DNA of 64,000 nucleotides from Escherichia phage ECO07P1, in the sequence record OP172784; one strand, written 5' to 3'. Positions 25,737 through 37,199 of the stretch are shown piece by piece. The number at the start of each line of letters is the position of its first letter. Position 1 is the stretch's first letter. A model generated the notes under the pieces. The model was not told the origin of the DNA. It did no database searches and saw only the letters and a list, made by a program, of their open reading frames with translations. The position numbers and the translations under genes are program-made.

Positions 25737-26461
25737 ATGAAACTAATCTTTTTAAGTGGTGTAAAGCGTAGTGGAAAAGATACTACTGCAGATTTTATCA
25801 TGGAAAATTATTCTGCAGTTAAATATCAACTTGCTGGTCCTATTAAGGATGCATTGGCTTATGCATGGGGTGTATTTGCAGCAAACACTGACTATCCTTG
25901 CTTAACTCGTAAAGAGTTTGAAGGAATTGACTATGATCGTGAGACTAATTTAAATCTGACTAAATTAGAAGTAATTACGATTATGGAACAAGCATTTTGC
26001 TATCTTAATGGTAAAAGCCCAATTAAAGGTGTGTTTGTTTTTGATGACGAAGGACAAGAATCAGTTAATTCCGTAGCATTTAACAAGATTATTGACGTTA
26101 TAAATAATATTGAAGATCAATGGTCAGTCCGTCGTCTGATGCAAGCCCTAGGTACGGATTTGATTGTTAATAACTTCGACCGCATGTATTGGGTAAAATT
26201 ATTTGCTTTAGATTATCTTGATAAATTTAACTCAGGTTATGATTATTATATCGTTCCTGATACTCGTCAAGATCATGAAATGGATGCGGCTAGGGCGATG
26301 GGTGCTACAGTAATTCATGTAGTTCGTCCTGGTCAAAAATCCAATGATACTCATATTACAGAAGCTGGATTGCCAATTCGTGATGGCGATTTAGTAATTA
26401 CAAACGATGGTTCTCTTGAAGAACTTTTTTCTAAAATTAAAAATACACTAAAGGTACTATA

Positions 26462-26462: not shown

Positions 26463-27159
<697 letters not shown>

Positions 27160-27171
27160 TTTCACAAAGTT

Positions 27172-27201
27172 GTTTACACGGGGTTTTAGTTGTGATACTA
27201 T
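27172..27201 (+). promoter_or_regulatory. T4-type early promoter
   Basis: GTTTAC-N18-TACTAT with A-rich upstream element. Confidence 0.6.
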
Positions 27202-27237
27202 TACCCTATCAAAACAAATGAGTGATTGGAGAATAAA

Positions 27238-27510
27238 ATGAAAACATTTAAAGAATTTATCAATGAAGCTGCTTTTAACGAAAAAGTAAAAATTAGCAAA
27301 GCTGTCAAGACTATGATTGATAACATCAATTACCTATATGGTATTGATTTAACTGACTATGTAACAGTTGGTAACAAACGTAACTATTTCGTGTTTGACA
27401 TCTCTGAACTTGACCAGAATCAAATTAACAACATTGAGCGTTTTGCTAATGATAAGGGTCTTCGTCATGAGTCAGCGGGTTATAAAAAATACGCAATTTA
27501 TTTAAAATGA
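27238..27510 (+). CDS. internal-protein-like protein with capsid targeting sequence (ipI-locus cassette 1)
   Basis: N-terminus MKTFKEFINE-A matches the T4 IP capsid-targeting sequence with gp21 L/I-x-E cleavage site; own early promoter and GGAG Shine-Dalgarno. Confidence 0.65.
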   Translation: MKTFKEFINEAAFNEKVKISKAVKTMIDNINYLYGIDLTDYVTVGNKRNYFVFDISELDQNQINNIERFANDKGLRHESAGYKKYAIYLK

Positions 27511-27540
27511 GTTTACTTTTAAATAGGGTTGTGGTACTAT
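27511..27540 (+). promoter_or_regulatory. T4-type early promoter
   Basis: GTTTAC-N18-TACTAT. Confidence 0.6.
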
Positions 27541-27570
27541 TATCTCATCAAAATTAATTAGGAAAATAAA

Positions 27571-27879
27571 ATGAAAACATTTAAAGAATTTATCAATGAA
27601 GCGGCTGCACCAAAGACATTCATTATTTATACTCAAGCGGGTCTTGATGATGAGTATGCGGAAGCAATTCTGAGGTCACTTGCTAAGAACGGTGTTGAAG
27701 TAATTGCTTCGGACTTTAAGAAAGGGGCTTCCGAGATGTTTATTTCTATAACTAAAGGATCTAAAGCTAAAATCAAATCATCATTCGGTGTTGCTCGTAC
27801 CGATCAAATCGACAATCATGACTTTAAACAAACTGGTGCTAAACGACAGAATACAATTGCATCACGCGGAATAAAATAG
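27571..27879 (+). CDS. internal-protein-like protein with capsid targeting sequence (cassette 2)
   Basis: N-terminus MKTFKEFINEAA, nucleotide-identical over ~29 nt to the cassette-1 start; own early promoter. Confidence 0.65.
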   Translation: MKTFKEFINEAAAPKTFIIYTQAGLDDEYAEAILRSLAKNGVEVIASDFKKGASEMFISITKGSKAKIKSSFGVARTDQIDNHDFKQTGAKRQNTIASRGIK

Positions 27880-27891
27880 TTTATAAAAACC

Positions 27892-27921
27892 GTTTACTTT
27901 TAGATAGGGTAGTGATACTAT
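27892..27921 (+). promoter_or_regulatory. T4-type early promoter
   Basis: GTTTAC-N18-TACTAT. Confidence 0.6.
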
Positions 27922-27949
27922 TACCCTATCAACTACTGAGGAGAATAAA

Positions 27950-28174
27950 ATGAAAACATGTAAAAAATTTATTGTAGAAGCTAAAAGACACGAAGACGAA
28001 CTGCCTTTTGTTTCAAAAACCTTTGATGGAACATTGGCTGATTTTAAAAAAATTCCTAATGATAAACTTGCTAAATTGGTTGGTTCTATTAGTGAAAAAG
28101 ATGGCAAGGTCACATTTTCTGCTCAAGGCGTTGCCAATCTCAAGAAACTTTTGAAAGCCGCTGGTGTTGAATAA
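27950..28174 (+). CDS. small basic protein with degenerate CTS-like N-terminus (cassette 3)
   Basis: MKTCKKFIVE-A N-terminus; own promoter/RBS module GAGGAGAATAAAATG. Confidence 0.55.
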   Translation: MKTCKKFIVEAKRHEDELPFVSKTFDGTLADFKKIPNDKLAKLVGSISEKDGKVTFSAQGVANLKKLLKAAGVE

Positions 28175-28177
28175 ATT

Positions 28178-28207
28178 GTTTACATAGGGTTTTAGTTGTG
28201 ATACTAT
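28178..28207 (+). promoter_or_regulatory. T4-type early promoter
   Basis: GTTTAC-N18-TACTAT. Confidence 0.6.
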
Positions 28208-28235
28208 TACCCTATCAACTACTGAGGAGAATAAA

Positions 28236-28418
28236 ATGAAACGTTGTGAATTAATTCGAAATGTTGCTATTGCAATTTCTGCTTCTGCTTTTAGTTTTTC
28301 AATGTTTGTTGGATTTATATGCGGATTATTGACTACAGCAGAAAATGTTTTTTCACTTGTAGTAGCATTTTTAATTGGTTTAATTGCTATCGTTATGGAT
28401 AAAATTTCTAAAGGTTAA
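28236..28418 (+). CDS. small two-helix membrane protein (cassette 4)
   Basis: 60 aa with two hydrophobic segments; same promoter/RBS module as cassette 3. Confidence 0.5.
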   Translation: MKRCELIRNVAIAISASAFSFSMFVGFICGLLTTAENVFSLVVAFLIGLIAIVMDKISKG

Positions 28419-28420
28419 TA

Positions 28421-28708
28421 ATGATTCTTTATGCGAAAGTATCGTCCGTTGAAAATGGATATAAATATGATCAAGATGCGGCTAAAGCCTTGATTGATGA
28501 TTATGGCATTTTAACATGTTTTGAAGTTGAAAAGGTTTACATTGACCGTTCATCTTCTCAAGTTAAATTAGTAAAGGAAGACCGTAAATTTAATACAGTA
28601 AATTTTGATTTCTTTATTGAAACAGAAAAAGGTCCTCTTGAATATGATATTTTCAAGAATCCTTTGGGTCTTGAATGCATCGTAAACATGTATTATCATA
28701 AATGGTAA
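28421..28708 (+). CDS. hypothetical protein
   Basis: 95 aa ORF starting at TAATGA overlap with preceding ORF stop. Confidence 0.5.
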   Translation: MILYAKVSSVENGYKYDQDAAKALIDDYGILTCFEVEKVYIDRSSSQVKLVKEDRKFNTVNFDFFIETEKGPLEYDIFKNPLGLECIVNMYYHKW

Positions 28709-28805: not shown

Positions 28806-28878
28806 TGGGAATTAGCCAAGTTGGTAAGGCACTGGATTTTGATTCCAGGATGCAAAGGTTCGAGTCCTTTATTCCCAG
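28806..28878 (+). tRNA. tRNA-Gln (anticodon UUG)
   Basis: Cloverleaf by eye: acceptor TGGGAAT/ATTCCCA, anticodon loop TTTTGAT, T-arm GGTTCGAGTCC. Confidence 0.85.
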
Positions 28879-28879
28879 C

Positions 28880-28966
28880 GCGAGAATGGTCAAATTGGTA
28901 AAGGCACAGCACTTAAAATGCTGCGGAATGATTTCCTTGTGGGTTCGAGTCCCACTTCTCGCACCA
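28880..28966 (+). tRNA. tRNA-Leu (anticodon UAA), long variable arm, CCA encoded
   Basis: Acceptor GCGAGAA/TTCTCGC, anticodon loop CTTAAAA, T-arm GGTTCGAGTCC, 3' ACCA. Confidence 0.85.
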
Positions 28967-28971
28967 AATTT

Positions 28972-29045
<74 letters not shown>

Positions 29046-29055
29046 ATTTAATTTA

Positions 29056-29129
29056 CTCCGTGTAGCTCAGTTTGGTAGAGCGTCTGCTTTGGGAGCAGAA
29101 TGTCGCAGGTTCAAATCCTGCCGCGGAGA
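29056..29129 (+). tRNA. tRNA-Pro (anticodon UGG)
   Basis: Acceptor CTCCGTG/CGCGGAG, anticodon loop CTTTGGG, T-arm GGTTCAAATCC. Confidence 0.85.
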
Positions 29130-29131
29130 CT

Positions 29132-29221
29132 GGAGGCGTGGCAGAGTGGTTTAATGCACCGGTCTTGAAAACCGGCAGTCGCTCCGGCGACTCATAGGTT
29201 CAAATCCTATCGCCTCCGCCA
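29132..29221 (+). tRNA. tRNA-Ser (anticodon UGA), long variable arm
   Basis: Acceptor GGAGGCG/CGCCTCC, anticodon loop CTTGAAA, T-arm GGTTCAAATCC, 3' GCCA. Confidence 0.85.
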
Positions 29222-29226
29222 GTTTT

Positions 29227-29302
29227 GCTGATTTAGCTTAGTAGGTAGAGCAACTCACTTGTAATGAGAAGGTCGGCGGTTCGATTCCGTCAATCAGCAC
29301 CA
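29227..29302 (+). tRNA. tRNA-Thr (anticodon UGU)
   Basis: Acceptor GCTGATT/AATCAGC, anticodon loop CTTGTAA, T-arm GGTTCGATTCC, 3' ACCA. Confidence 0.85.
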
Positions 29303-29303
29303 A

Positions 29304-29378
29304 GGCCCTGTAGCTGGAAGGTTCAAGCAAGCGACTCATAATCGCCAGATGGTGGTTCAATTCCACCCAGGGCCACCA
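29304..29378 (+). tRNA. tRNA with CAU anticodon (Ile2 lysidine-type by T4 analogy, or Met)
   Basis: Acceptor GGCCCTG/CAGGGCC, anticodon loop TCATAAT, T-arm GGTTCAATTCC, 3' ACCA. Confidence 0.75.
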
Positions 29379-29391
29379 AATTAAGAATTAA

Positions 29392-29478
29392 GGGGAGTTA
29401 TCCCGTAGAGGTAGCGGTGTGGACTGTAAATCCATTGTCATTGCGACTCGGGTGGTTCGACTCCATCACTCCCCACCA
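29392..29478 (+). tRNA. tRNA-Tyr (anticodon GUA), class II long variable arm
   Basis: Acceptor GGGGAGT/ACTCCCC, anticodon stem GTGGA/TCCAT with loop CTGTAAA, T-arm GGTGGTTCGACTCCATC, 3' ACCA. Confidence 0.75.
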
Positions 29479-29482
29479 ATTT

Positions 29483-29557
29483 GGATGTGTAGCTCAATGG
29501 CAGAGCGATCGCCTGTTAAGCGATTGGTTATAGGTTCGAATCCTATCACGTCCGCCA
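29483..29557 (+). tRNA. tRNA-Asn (anticodon GUU)
   Basis: Acceptor GGATGTG/CACGTCC, anticodon loop CTGTTAA, T-arm GGTTCGAATCC, 3' GCCA. Confidence 0.8.
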
Positions 29558-29561
29558 AATC

Positions 29562-29637
29562 CGAGGCATAGCTCAGAAGGAAGAGCAAGGACCTTCTAAG
29601 TCCTAGGTCGTAGGTTCGATCCCTACTGCCTCGACCA
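29562..29637 (+). tRNA. tRNA-Arg (anticodon UCU)
   Basis: Acceptor CGAGGCA/TGCCTCG, anticodon loop CTTCTAA, T-arm GGTTCGATCCC, 3' ACCA. Confidence 0.85.
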
Positions 29638-30433: not shown

Positions 30434-30997
30434 ATGAAAACTTATGCCGAATTTTTAACCGAAGCAGCAAAATTACCATCTGAAGCAGAACTTACTAAAG
30501 TATTCTTCCAATTGGACCCAAAAGACCGTGGCGATTTTCTTAAGTGGAAAGCTAAAGCTATTGAAATGTATAACATTGATAATAGTTCTTTTACGATGAG
30601 TCAAGAAAATAAATTCAATAAAGCATTTTTCAAAATTTCTAAGAAACTGGCATCTGGCGCTCAGGTTCCTAAATCTGCCTTAGCTACTCCTGAACGTGCG
30701 CCTGTTAAAATTTCTAAGAATATGTTCGACACTAAAAAATACGTTAATGCTTTGAATAAAGCTCTTGATGCATTGGATGATGCAAAGAAGGCAGCCCGTG
30801 ATCTTCAAGACGTGTACATCGATTTTGATCGTAAAACTAAAGGTTCTATTTCAAATAGCGAACGCAATAGTGTAAGCGTTTATTCTGATAGCCTTGACGT
30901 TCTTGGCGATGCGTATACTGAAATTAAAAATCGTATTAACACCGCATCTAAACTAAAAGCTGCCGCAGAAGCTATAATAGCTAAACTAGATAAATAA
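30434..30997 (+). CDS. capsid-targeting-sequence protein, candidate novel internal protein
   Basis: 187 aa; N-terminus MKTYAEFLTE-A (CTS with L-x-E cleavage site); Lys/Ala/Asp-rich; terminator follows. Confidence 0.6.
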   Translation: MKTYAEFLTEAAKLPSEAELTKVFFQLDPKDRGDFLKWKAKAIEMYNIDNSSFTMSQENKFNKAFFKISKKLASGAQVPKSALATPERAPVKISKNMFDTKKYVNALNKALDALDDAKKAARDLQDVYIDFDRKTKGSISNSERNSVSVYSDSLDVLGDAYTEIKNRINTASKLKAAAEAIIAKLDK

Positions 30998-34673: not shown

Positions 34674-35476
<803 letters not shown>

Positions 35477-35507: not shown

Positions 35508-35534
35508 ACATTCATCAACTACTTGGAGGAAATT

Positions 35535-35948
35535 ATGACTCGTATCAATTTAACACTTGTTTCTGAACTGACCGACCAACATCTTATGGCTGAGTATCGT
35601 GAATTACCACGCGTATTTGGTGCAGTCCGTAAACATGTTCAAAACGGTAAACGTGTAAAGGATTTTAAAATCTCTCCAACATTTATCTTAGGCACAGGTC
35701 ACGTAACATTCTTTTACGACAAACTCGAATTTTTACGTTTACGTCAAATCGAGCTAATCGCTGAATGCTTGAAACGTGGTTTCAAAATCAAGGACACGAC
35801 TGTCCAGGATATTTCCGACATCCCTGTCGAATTTCGTAATAATTATGTCCCGTCCGAAGCGTCCATTGCGATAAGTCAAGCTCGCTTAGATGAAAAAATT
35901 GCTCAACGCCCTACTTGGTACAAATACTATGGTAAATCAATTTACTAA
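35535..35948 (+). CDS. denV: endonuclease V, pyrimidine-dimer DNA glycosylase
   Basis: [35 protein letters not shown]..., near-identical to T4 DenV; early promoter upstream. Confidence 0.92.
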
Positions 35949-36276: not shown

Positions 36277-36855
36277 ATGAAAACGTATAAAGAATTTATT
36301 GCTGAAGCTTCTGTGGAAAAGGCCAAAGGCATTAATAAGGACGAGTGGAACTATCGTGGTGGAAACGGCTTTGACCCTAAAACTGCTCCACTTGAACGAT
36401 ATCTAGCCACAAAAGCTTCTGACTTTAAAGCTTTCGCTTGGGAAGGACTTCGCTGGCGTACCGATCTAAATATTGAAGTTGATGGGCTTAAATTTGGCCA
36501 TATTCAAGATGTTGTTGCTAGTAACTTGGATGCAGCTTTTGTTAAAGCTGACGGTGACCTTCGTCGCTGGAATTTAAAACTATTCTCTAAACAGAAAGGC
36601 CCGGTGTTTGTGCCTAAAGCTGGTAAATGGGTTATTGATAATAAATTAGCTAAGGCTGTCAACTACGCTGGTCTTGAATTCGCCAAGCACAAATCATCAT
36701 GGAAAGGTCTGGATGCAATGGCTTTCCGTAAAGAATTTGCTGATGTTATGGCTAAAGGCGGCTTTAAGGCAGAAATAGATACCTCTAAAGGTACGTTTAA
36801 GGACGCTAATGTTCAGTACGCTTATGCCGTTGCTAACGCAGCCCGTGGTAATTAA
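36277..36855 (+). CDS. ipIII: internal protein III-like
   Basis: 192 aa; MKTYKEFIAE-A CTS; length and N-terminus match T4 IPIII from memory. Confidence 0.7.
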   Translation: MKTYKEFIAEASVEKAKGINKDEWNYRGGNGFDPKTAPLERYLATKASDFKAFAWEGLRWRTDLNIEVDGLKFGHIQDVVASNLDAAFVKADGDLRRWNLKLFSKQKGPVFVPKAGKWVIDNKLAKAVNYAGLEFAKHKSSWKGLDAMAFRKEFADVMAKGGFKAEIDTSKGTFKDANVQYAYAVANAARGN

Positions 36856-36896: not shown

Positions 36897-37199
36897 ATGA
36901 AAACATATCAAGAATTTATTACTGAAGCTCGAGTGAGTGCAGGTAAATTAGAATCCGCTATAAATAAAAAGGCCCATTCATTTCATGATTTGTCCGATAA
37001 AGACCGTAAGAAACTTATAAGCCTTTATATTGACAAAGAGCGTATTCTCGCTCTTCCTGGCGCTAATGAAGGTAAACAGGCCAAGCCTTTGAATGCTGTC
37101 GAAAAGAAAATTGATAACTTTGCTTCTAAATTCGGTATGTCTATGGATGACCTTCAGCAAGCGGCTATCGAAGCAGCTAAAGTAATTAAAGGTAAATAA
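36897..37199 (+). CDS. ipII: internal protein II-like
   Basis: 100 aa; MKTYQEFITE-A CTS; length matches T4 IPII. Confidence 0.65.
   Translation: MKTYQEFITEARVSAGKLESAINKKAHSFHDLSDKDRKKLISLYIDKERILALPGANEGKQAKPLNAVEKKIDNFASKFGMSMDDLQQAAIEAAKVIKGK

Follow-up and report, generated by a model that had tools for sequence, protein, structure and literature searches.

Sequence comparison places the Ip9, Ip7 and Ip8 genes of Escherichia phage ECO07P1 at the polymorphic ipI locus, between repeated early-promoter elements

Judged from gene order and sequence comparison, the region downstream of gene 57B in Escherichia phage ECO07P1 is the polymorphic ipI (‘IP’) locus of a Tequatrovirus, in which the genes for Ip9, Ip7 and Ip8 replace the lone ipI of T4. 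The explanation that best accounts for the whole, and in which we have high confidence, is an ipI locus built of repeated promoter/leader/CTS modules, whose products would be injected inhibitors and whose conserved cores would serve as sites of exchange. An earlier note, made from the sequence alone, had described the ipI locus as replaced by four mini-cassettes; the locus was correctly recognized but the number was not, as three genes replace ipI and the fourth ORF corresponds to trna.4. The repeats are real yet ordinary, because this is a known variable locus carrying the already named Ip9, Ip7 and Ip8, followed by the trna.4 of T4. Literature going back to 1994 already describes the locus, its repeated promoter/CTS modules and the idea of shuffling, and ECO07P1 contributes only one further allele combination.

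In the window (the whole 64-kb stretch of ECO07P1 DNA that was analyzed) the gene order is 1 / 57A / 57B / Ip9 / Ip7 / Ip8 / trna.4 / trna.2 / tRNAs, matching that of T4, there with ipI, and all three Ip genes lie between 57B and trna.4, the position of the IP locus. The conserved left anchor of the locus, 57B (26704-27159, + strand), encodes the anti-CBASS phosphodiesterase Acb1 (Pfam PF23474, E = 2.6e-60) and is positioned as in T4. On the right, trna.4 (28236-28418, + strand; PHROG 1692) is followed by a 95-aa trna.2 homolog (28421-28708, + strand; PHROG 2023) that begins 2 nt past the trna.4 stop; trna.3 is absent from ECO07P1, and ten tRNA genes identified with ARAGORN (28806-29637, + strand) form the downstream boundary of the region. 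The trna.4 product is, much as the earlier note had described it, a 60-aa peptide with two hydrophobic segments (hydropathy), and it falls in the 90%-identity cluster of the T4-type 61-aa ‘uncharacterized 6.6 kDa protein in segB-ipI intergenic region’. Its N-terminus (MKRCELIRNV) contains no CTS and it does not have the features of an internal protein; as a T4 trna.4 homolog lacking a CTS, it was rejected as a fourth ip cassette. In T4, trna.4 (a 61-aa membrane peptide) lies directly after ipI, with a similar promoter and leader, and it follows the ip array in nearly all of 40 loci compared for gene content. By comparison of these loci, trna.4 is the conserved right-hand anchor, outside the variable array.

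All four proteins exactly match proteins of Escherichia phage ECO07P1 (WAX12931-33). Identity over the region is 98.3% with Salmonella phage F13076 and ~95% with G4498; in both the same array is annotated, with the three CTS-bearing ORFs as internal head or internal virion proteins, and several deposited genomes carry the array already annotated. The RB32 GenBank record describes Ip9 and Ip7 as “flanked by 43 bp direct repeat”. Ip9, Ip7 and Ip8 were reportedly first deposited by Repoila et al. in 1994, from RB15 and K3, in a study of T-even polymorphism. The earlier note had conceded that its reading would fail if the ORFs were identical to characterized IPI variants; they are indeed named and sequenced Ip proteins, but not functionally characterized ones.

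Ip9 (90 aa; 27238-27510, + strand) has 90% identity to RB32 Ip9 and 88% to RB15 Ip9 (Q38376), and matches PHROG 7673 (internal head protein, 3.6e-54). Ip7 (102 aa; 27571-27879, + strand) was aligned to RB32 and WG01 Ip7 (PHROG 2667), and Ip8 (74 aa; 27950-28174, + strand) shares a 90%-identity cluster with Ip8 of RB15 (Q38377) and K3 (Q38396) and matches PHROG 8765 (internal virion protein, 2.3e-23). Each is thereby an ortholog of a named Ip, and all three PHROG families are annotated as internal head or internal virion proteins; the protein comparison suggested by the earlier note yielded matches to RB32, RB15 and K3 proteins as well as to PHROGs. Mutagenesis of the IPIII CTS has connected residues 4 and 7 with targeting and residues 8 and 10 with processing (PMC9026906), and the CTS definition used here requires position 4 to be aromatic, Phe, Ile/Leu and Glu at positions 7, 8 and 10, and a small residue next. 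The MKTxKxFIxE-A signature that had been read in three of the ORFs is present as MKTFKEFINE-A in Ip9 and Ip7, fitting every determinant, and in an atypical form, MKTCKKFIVE-A, in Ip8, which fits at positions 7, 8 and 10 but has Cys at position 4, versus Tyr in other alleles. As position 4 is a targeting determinant, this Cys may impair packaging of Ip8. Cleavage of Ip9, predicted before Ala11, would leave a mature protein of 80 aa (pI 8.85), the corresponding values being 92 aa (pI 9.65) for Ip7 and 64 aa (pI 9.35) for Ip8.

Beyond the CTS the three proteins have little to connect them. The hhalign alignment of Ip7 with Ip9 is confined to 16 columns of the CTS region, and BLASTP between the mature parts of the Ips gave no match; by these measures mature Ip9, Ip7 and Ip8 are unrelated to each other, with the CTS alone in common. 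None of the four proteins scored above threshold against Pfam or NCBIfam, PDB sequence searches identified no relatives, and no sequence or fold link was found between Ip9, Ip7 or Ip8 and IPI*, Ip2, Ip3 or known anti-defense proteins. Structure models, built from shallow alignments (11-12 sequences, all from T4-like phages), are of moderate confidence (pLDDT 67 for Ip7 and 77 for Ip9) and predict a beta-alpha-beta-beta-alpha topology for Ip7, with a ferredoxin-like core followed by a conserved but low-confidence basic tail, and alpha-alpha-beta-beta-alpha-beta-beta for Ip9. An origin of the array by tandem duplication of one ancestral ip gene and subsequent divergence, making the cassettes paralogs rather than imports, might be expected from genes that are tandem, co-oriented and similar in size, with common 5′ ends. 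It was rejected as highly improbable, since the mature regions lack similarity in BLASTP and profile-profile comparisons, the predicted topologies of Ip7 and Ip9 differ, and each Ip family is found alone or in other combinations in other phages.

A spacer of 60-78 nt before each of the four ORFs holds an element of the form GTTTAC-N18-TACTAT ... AATAAAATGAAA, with a short leader between the two parts. The promoter is exact at 27172, 27511, 27892 and 28178, in agreement with the earlier note, and has a TG-extended -10 hexamer. With up to one mismatch, the pattern has 11 matches in the window (0.42 expected), all on the + strand, and the core pattern is therefore a generic early promoter of the phage, of which four copies are packed into 1.1 kb and seven more are found elsewhere in the window. 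GTGATACTATTACCCTATCAA, in comparison, occurs in the window only at three of the four elements (0 expected by chance).

Element 1 (27172-27237, + strand; -19.3 kcal/mol, z -2.5) consists of the early promoter, a weaker hairpin (27180-27207) and a leader whose ribosome site is GGAG, and element 2 (27511-27570, + strand; -4.1 kcal/mol, z +1.3) of the early promoter and an IpI-type leader with a GGAA ribosome site. Element 3 (27892-27949, + strand) has the -10 hexamer of its early promoter enclosed in a perfect 12-bp hairpin, and its leader is of the trna.4 type. In element 4 (28178-28235, + strand; -15 kcal/mol, z -2.0) the early promoter is accompanied by a hairpin (28184-28215) and the trna.4 leader, identical from the -10 to the ATG to the element upstream of T4 trna.4, while the promoter half is near-identical. 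The longest exact runs between elements are 44 nt (Ip8 versus trna.4), 38 nt (Ip9 versus Ip7; 27232-27269 / 27565-27602, which takes in the ribosome site plus the initial 32 nt of coding sequence) and 32 nt (Ip9 versus trna.4), and the Ip7 element is an outlier, with 62-63% identity to the others over 46-78 nt. The description of the elements as near-identical is thus apt for these exact runs but not for the Ip7 element, and the 5′ ends of the ORFs at 27238 and 27571 are identical as claimed, over 32 coding nt rather than ~29.

When the four elements of the window were aligned with their T4 and RB32 counterparts, an inverted repeat emerged that flanks the -10 hexamer, a feature absent from the account in the earlier note. 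In the Ip8 element it forms a 12-bp hairpin, GATAGGGTAGTG-ATAC-TATTACCCTATC (27903-27930; -16.4 kcal/mol, z -3.0), and none of 200 shuffled sequences folded as stably. The T4 ipI element has a compensated version, TGATGAGGTAGTG-ATAC-TATTACCTCATCA (-17.4 kcal/mol, z -3.6), the change being from GATAGGG/CCCTATC in some elements to GATGAGG/CCTCATC in others. In this alignment the 12-13 bp hairpin is conserved through compensatory changes, and elements 1 and 4 contain a 7-bp version with a larger loop. Of the window elements only that of Ip7 has no stem-loop, because its two arms mismatch (“TAGGG” on the left, “TCTCAT” on the right); the other three have one, as do the ipI and trna.4 elements of T4. 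As no T run follows it, the hairpin is not an intrinsic terminator. It may be, for example, the target of a structure-specific nuclease that steers cassette exchange. The combined proposal that the hairpin is an active recombination or regulatory site and that T4-like phages have a third, unannotated IP locus is tentative, and we consider it rather doubtful.

In having an early promoter repeated at the borders of small variable ORFs (four copies in 1.1 kb) and an associated stem-loop, the elements resemble the PeSL of RB49/phi1, PST and nt-1, which likewise mark boundaries of insertion, deletion and replacement (PMC2839356; PMC4122927). Unlike the PeSL of RB49/phi1, they are based on a T4 early promoter rather than a sigma-70-like one, and their stem, which encloses the -10, is AT-rich with only a GGG/CCC core, whereas the RB49/phi1 stem is polyG/polyC. 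Arbiol et al. (2010) regarded the IP-locus elements as analogs, not homologs, of PeSL and, citing Repoila et al., described them as derived from T4 early promoters and as having AT-rich stem-loops of lesser strength, and suggested that these elements may drive IP shuffling (PMC2839356), an account repeated by Comeau et al. (2014; PMC4122927).

Evidence for exchange at the elements comes from comparison with other loci, of which 36 were taken from IMG/VR (with 57B as probe) and 10 were annotated GenBank loci; gene content was compared across 40 loci and element mosaics in 16 Tequatrovirus-type loci. Between 57B and trna.4, the 40 loci contain from 0 to 5 CTS-bearing ORFs of >12 unrelated families. 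Among distant relatives, the 57B stop codon is overlapped by the first ip, which lacks a separate promoter; one promoter per gene is thus a trait of Tequatrovirus and close relatives. In the 16 loci, the 5′ half of each element (flank, -35 and spacer, up to the -10) tracks the upstream gene, and is always TATTTAAAATGA GTTTACTTTTAAATAGGGT after Ip9 and always ...CC GTTTACTTTTAGAT(A/G)GGGTA after Ip7. The 3′ half (-10 to ATG) tracks the downstream gene and is constant for trna.4, Ip7, IpI and Ip5: it is always TACCCTATCAACTACTGAGGAGAATAAA before trna.4, while Ip7, IpI and Ip5 have an almost invariant leader in common. Three different leaders precede Ip9 across the loci and two precede Ip8, which in ECO07P1 has the trna.4 leader. 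Ip9 alleles also carry at least five CTS variants (including FKEFINE, YQEFISE, YQEFIAE and FKEFIVE), and the CTS of ECO07P1 Ip9 is exactly that of Ip7 at the nucleotide level. In one metagenomic locus (L021) a -10/right-arm segment, GATACTATTACCTCATCAA, is duplicated, and throughout the 16 loci borders of gene presence or absence coincide with the elements.

Because element halves and CTS alleles are mosaic, crossovers are placed in two cores, GTGATACTATTAC at the -10 and GGARAATAAAATGAAAAC spanning the RBS, ATG and CTS. The mosaic junctions across the 16 loci support a role for the repeated promoter/leader/CTS blocks as putative recombination joints in cassette shuffling, as the earlier note had supposed for the shared 5′ ends; this shuffling model matches one already proposed for the ipI locus. 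The repeats could instead be maintained purely by selection on function, as promoter, RBS and targeting peptide, with no part in recombination: GTTTAC-N18-TACTAT is a generic early promoter, as its seven further copies in the window indicate, and CTS residues 4, 7, 8 and 10 are functionally constrained (PMC9026906). This is very unlikely, as the exact runs of 38-44 nt take in unconstrained spacer, leader and synonymous positions, a single gene can have differing leaders and CTS alleles, element halves segregate with their neighbors, and the core is duplicated in L021. Under the favored shuffling model, the two conserved cores would provide the short homologies for gain, loss and swapping of ip genes between relatives.

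The closest described counterpart is the IP locus of K3, RB15 and RB32 (Repoila, Tetart, Bouet & Krisch 1994; EMBO J 13:4181), which is alike in its genes, its position between 57B and trna.4 and its repeated flanks. Only the combination and the alleles differ from the deposited K3, RB15 and RB32 entries: ECO07P1 has Ip9-Ip7-Ip8 without Ip5 or IpI, its Ip9 has an Ip7-type CTS, its Ip8 combines a leader of the trna.4 type with Cys4 in the CTS, and the phage lacks trna.3. Like IPI* (Ip1), Ip2 and Ip3 of T4, the ECO07P1 proteins have an N-terminal CTS with the gp21 cleavage motif and a small basic mature part, and are encoded by genes with early promoters; with Ip1 specifically, they also share the locus.

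[quoted passage not shown] By the same pathway, each ip gene of ECO07P1 would be read from its own T4-type early promoter, the module ending with the first 30 coding bases, which encode the CTS, MKT(F/Y/C)xxFIxE. The CTS would direct the protein into the prohead core, where the gp21 protease would remove it after Glu10, and the small basic mature Ip would enter the host together with the DNA. There it would most likely block a host enzyme that attacks glucosyl-hmC DNA (Type IV, GmrSD-type), each Ip having its own target. No late promoter (TATAAATA) was found inside the array; one is present in gene 1, at 26099, and T4 and the three relatives checked have it at a similar offset, 593-605 nt upstream of 57B. 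As the array contains none, supply for head assembly would have to draw on early RNA that persists or on read-through initiated at the TATAAATA copy at 26099.

Ip1, Ip2 and Ip3 of T4 each inhibit a distinct GmrSD-type enzyme (PMC12373910), and by analogy with these an anti-restriction role is inferred for Ip9, Ip7 and Ip8. The idea of one inhibitor per defense is an already published hypothesis: Silas et al. (2025) proposed GmrSD variants as the targets of every protein encoded at the two Ip loci (PMC12373910), and diverse injected inhibitors were also hypothesized by Rao & Black (2010; PMC3012670). In literature searches for functional or proteomic data, the names Ip7, Ip8 and Ip9 turned up only in unrelated senses. 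Alternatively, the three could mainly be basic DNA-associated head proteins, acting in assembly, packing or ejection rather than as defense inhibitors, as would fit the basic pI of the mature proteins (8.85-9.65), the high copy number of the T4 IPs, the defective head assembly of IPIII mutants and the contact of IP lysines with DNA phosphates (PMC9026906; PMC3012670). Set against this are the specific GmrSD targets of all three T4 IPs (PMC12373910), an extreme turnover of unrelated families that suits an arms race better than a structural role, and the anti-CBASS gene acb1 adjoining the locus; a mainly structural function is therefore unlikely, and inhibition of host restriction is the preferred reading.

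Outside the classical IP loci, a 187-aa ORF (30434-30997) also starts with a CTS-like decapeptide, as does an unrelated family of 154-157-aa proteins encoded in the same relative place. Both are “hypothetical” in every deposited record, and the 187-aa CTS-bearing ORF is the most interesting leftover of the analysis. If there is truly a third IP locus, the injected repertoire would exceed the two classical loci.

The IP loci are a hotspot of injected counter-defense proteins, with targets known only for Ip1-3 of T4, and inhibitors of further Type IV restriction variants could reasonably be looked for next among Ip7, Ip8 and Ip9. The Ip content of a therapeutic T4-like phage may help in predicting its host range.

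The gene bounding the ip array on its left, 57B (26,704–27,159, plus strand), carries the label ‘RNA ligase’ in many records and matches the Pfam family Acb1 (anti-CBASS phosphodiesterase; 2.6e-60); the array therefore adjoins another counter-defence gene. There are two late-promoter-like octamers (TATAAATA, plus strand), one inside gene 1 (26,099–26,106) and one inside trna.2 (28,460–28,467). The gene 1 octamer approximately keeps its offset, lying 593–605 nt upstream of 57B in T4 and the three relatives checked, and could supply late transcripts across 57A, 57B and the ip array. The relatives checked also have the second octamer in their trna.2 genes, where its offset changes with the size of the ip array.

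Within the array, the ribosome sites of Ip9 (27,225–27,228), Ip8 (27,937–27,940) and the downstream gene trna.4 (28,223–28,226) contain GGAG, whereas that of Ip7 (27,558–27,561) contains GGAA, as do those of T4 ipI and Ip5. The T4 endoribonuclease RegB targets GGAG where this motif forms part of an early Shine-Dalgarno sequence; speculatively, therefore, the cassettes might differ in the time for which their early mRNAs remain translatable. Ip8 also varies in its capsid-targeting sequence (CTS; 27,950–27,979, plus strand), which reads MKTCKKFIVE in ECO07P1 and F13076, but MKTYQKFIVE in RB15, K3 and 310Ecol104PP. Cys thus replaces an aromatic residue at position 4, a targeting determinant, and packaging efficiency of Ip8 in ECO07P1 and F13076 may consequently differ from that of other alleles. 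In the metagenomic locus L021 (5,174–5,252; IMG/VR UViG 2706796299_000001), the segment of the Ip7 leader comprising the -10 hexamer and right hairpin arm is tandemly duplicated (TACCTCATCAAGATACTATTACCTCATCAA), which looks like the footprint of an unequal exchange inside the -10 core. At the right boundary, trna.3, which encodes 132–136 aa in T4 (L003), RB32 and G4498, is missing from the window (28,418–28,421), where trna.2 begins 2 nt past trna.4, an arrangement shared with F13076 and Pu-Krd-SF5.

Compared with T4, the second internal-protein locus of the window has one additional CTS-bearing orf (93 aa; 35,195–35,476, plus strand), located between e (34,710–35,198) and denV (35,523–35,948), with the ipIII and ipII homologues further downstream (36,277–36,855 and 36,897–37,199). 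A 187-aa orf (30,434–30,997, plus strand) that is missing from T4 begins with a CTS-like decapeptide (MKTYAEFLTE/AAKLP) although it belongs to neither classical locus, being flanked by the tRNA block and e.8; directly upstream it has no GTTTAC-N18-TACTAT early promoter. It belongs to PHROG 2280 (function listed as unknown) and was found in 164 phage records, annotated as ‘hypothetical protein’ in all. At the same relative place, other loci carry a family of 154–157-aa proteins starting MKSYAQFLNEA, unrelated to the 187-aa orf and having only the decapeptide in common with it. On these sequence features, the site may represent a third, unannotated internal-protein locus.
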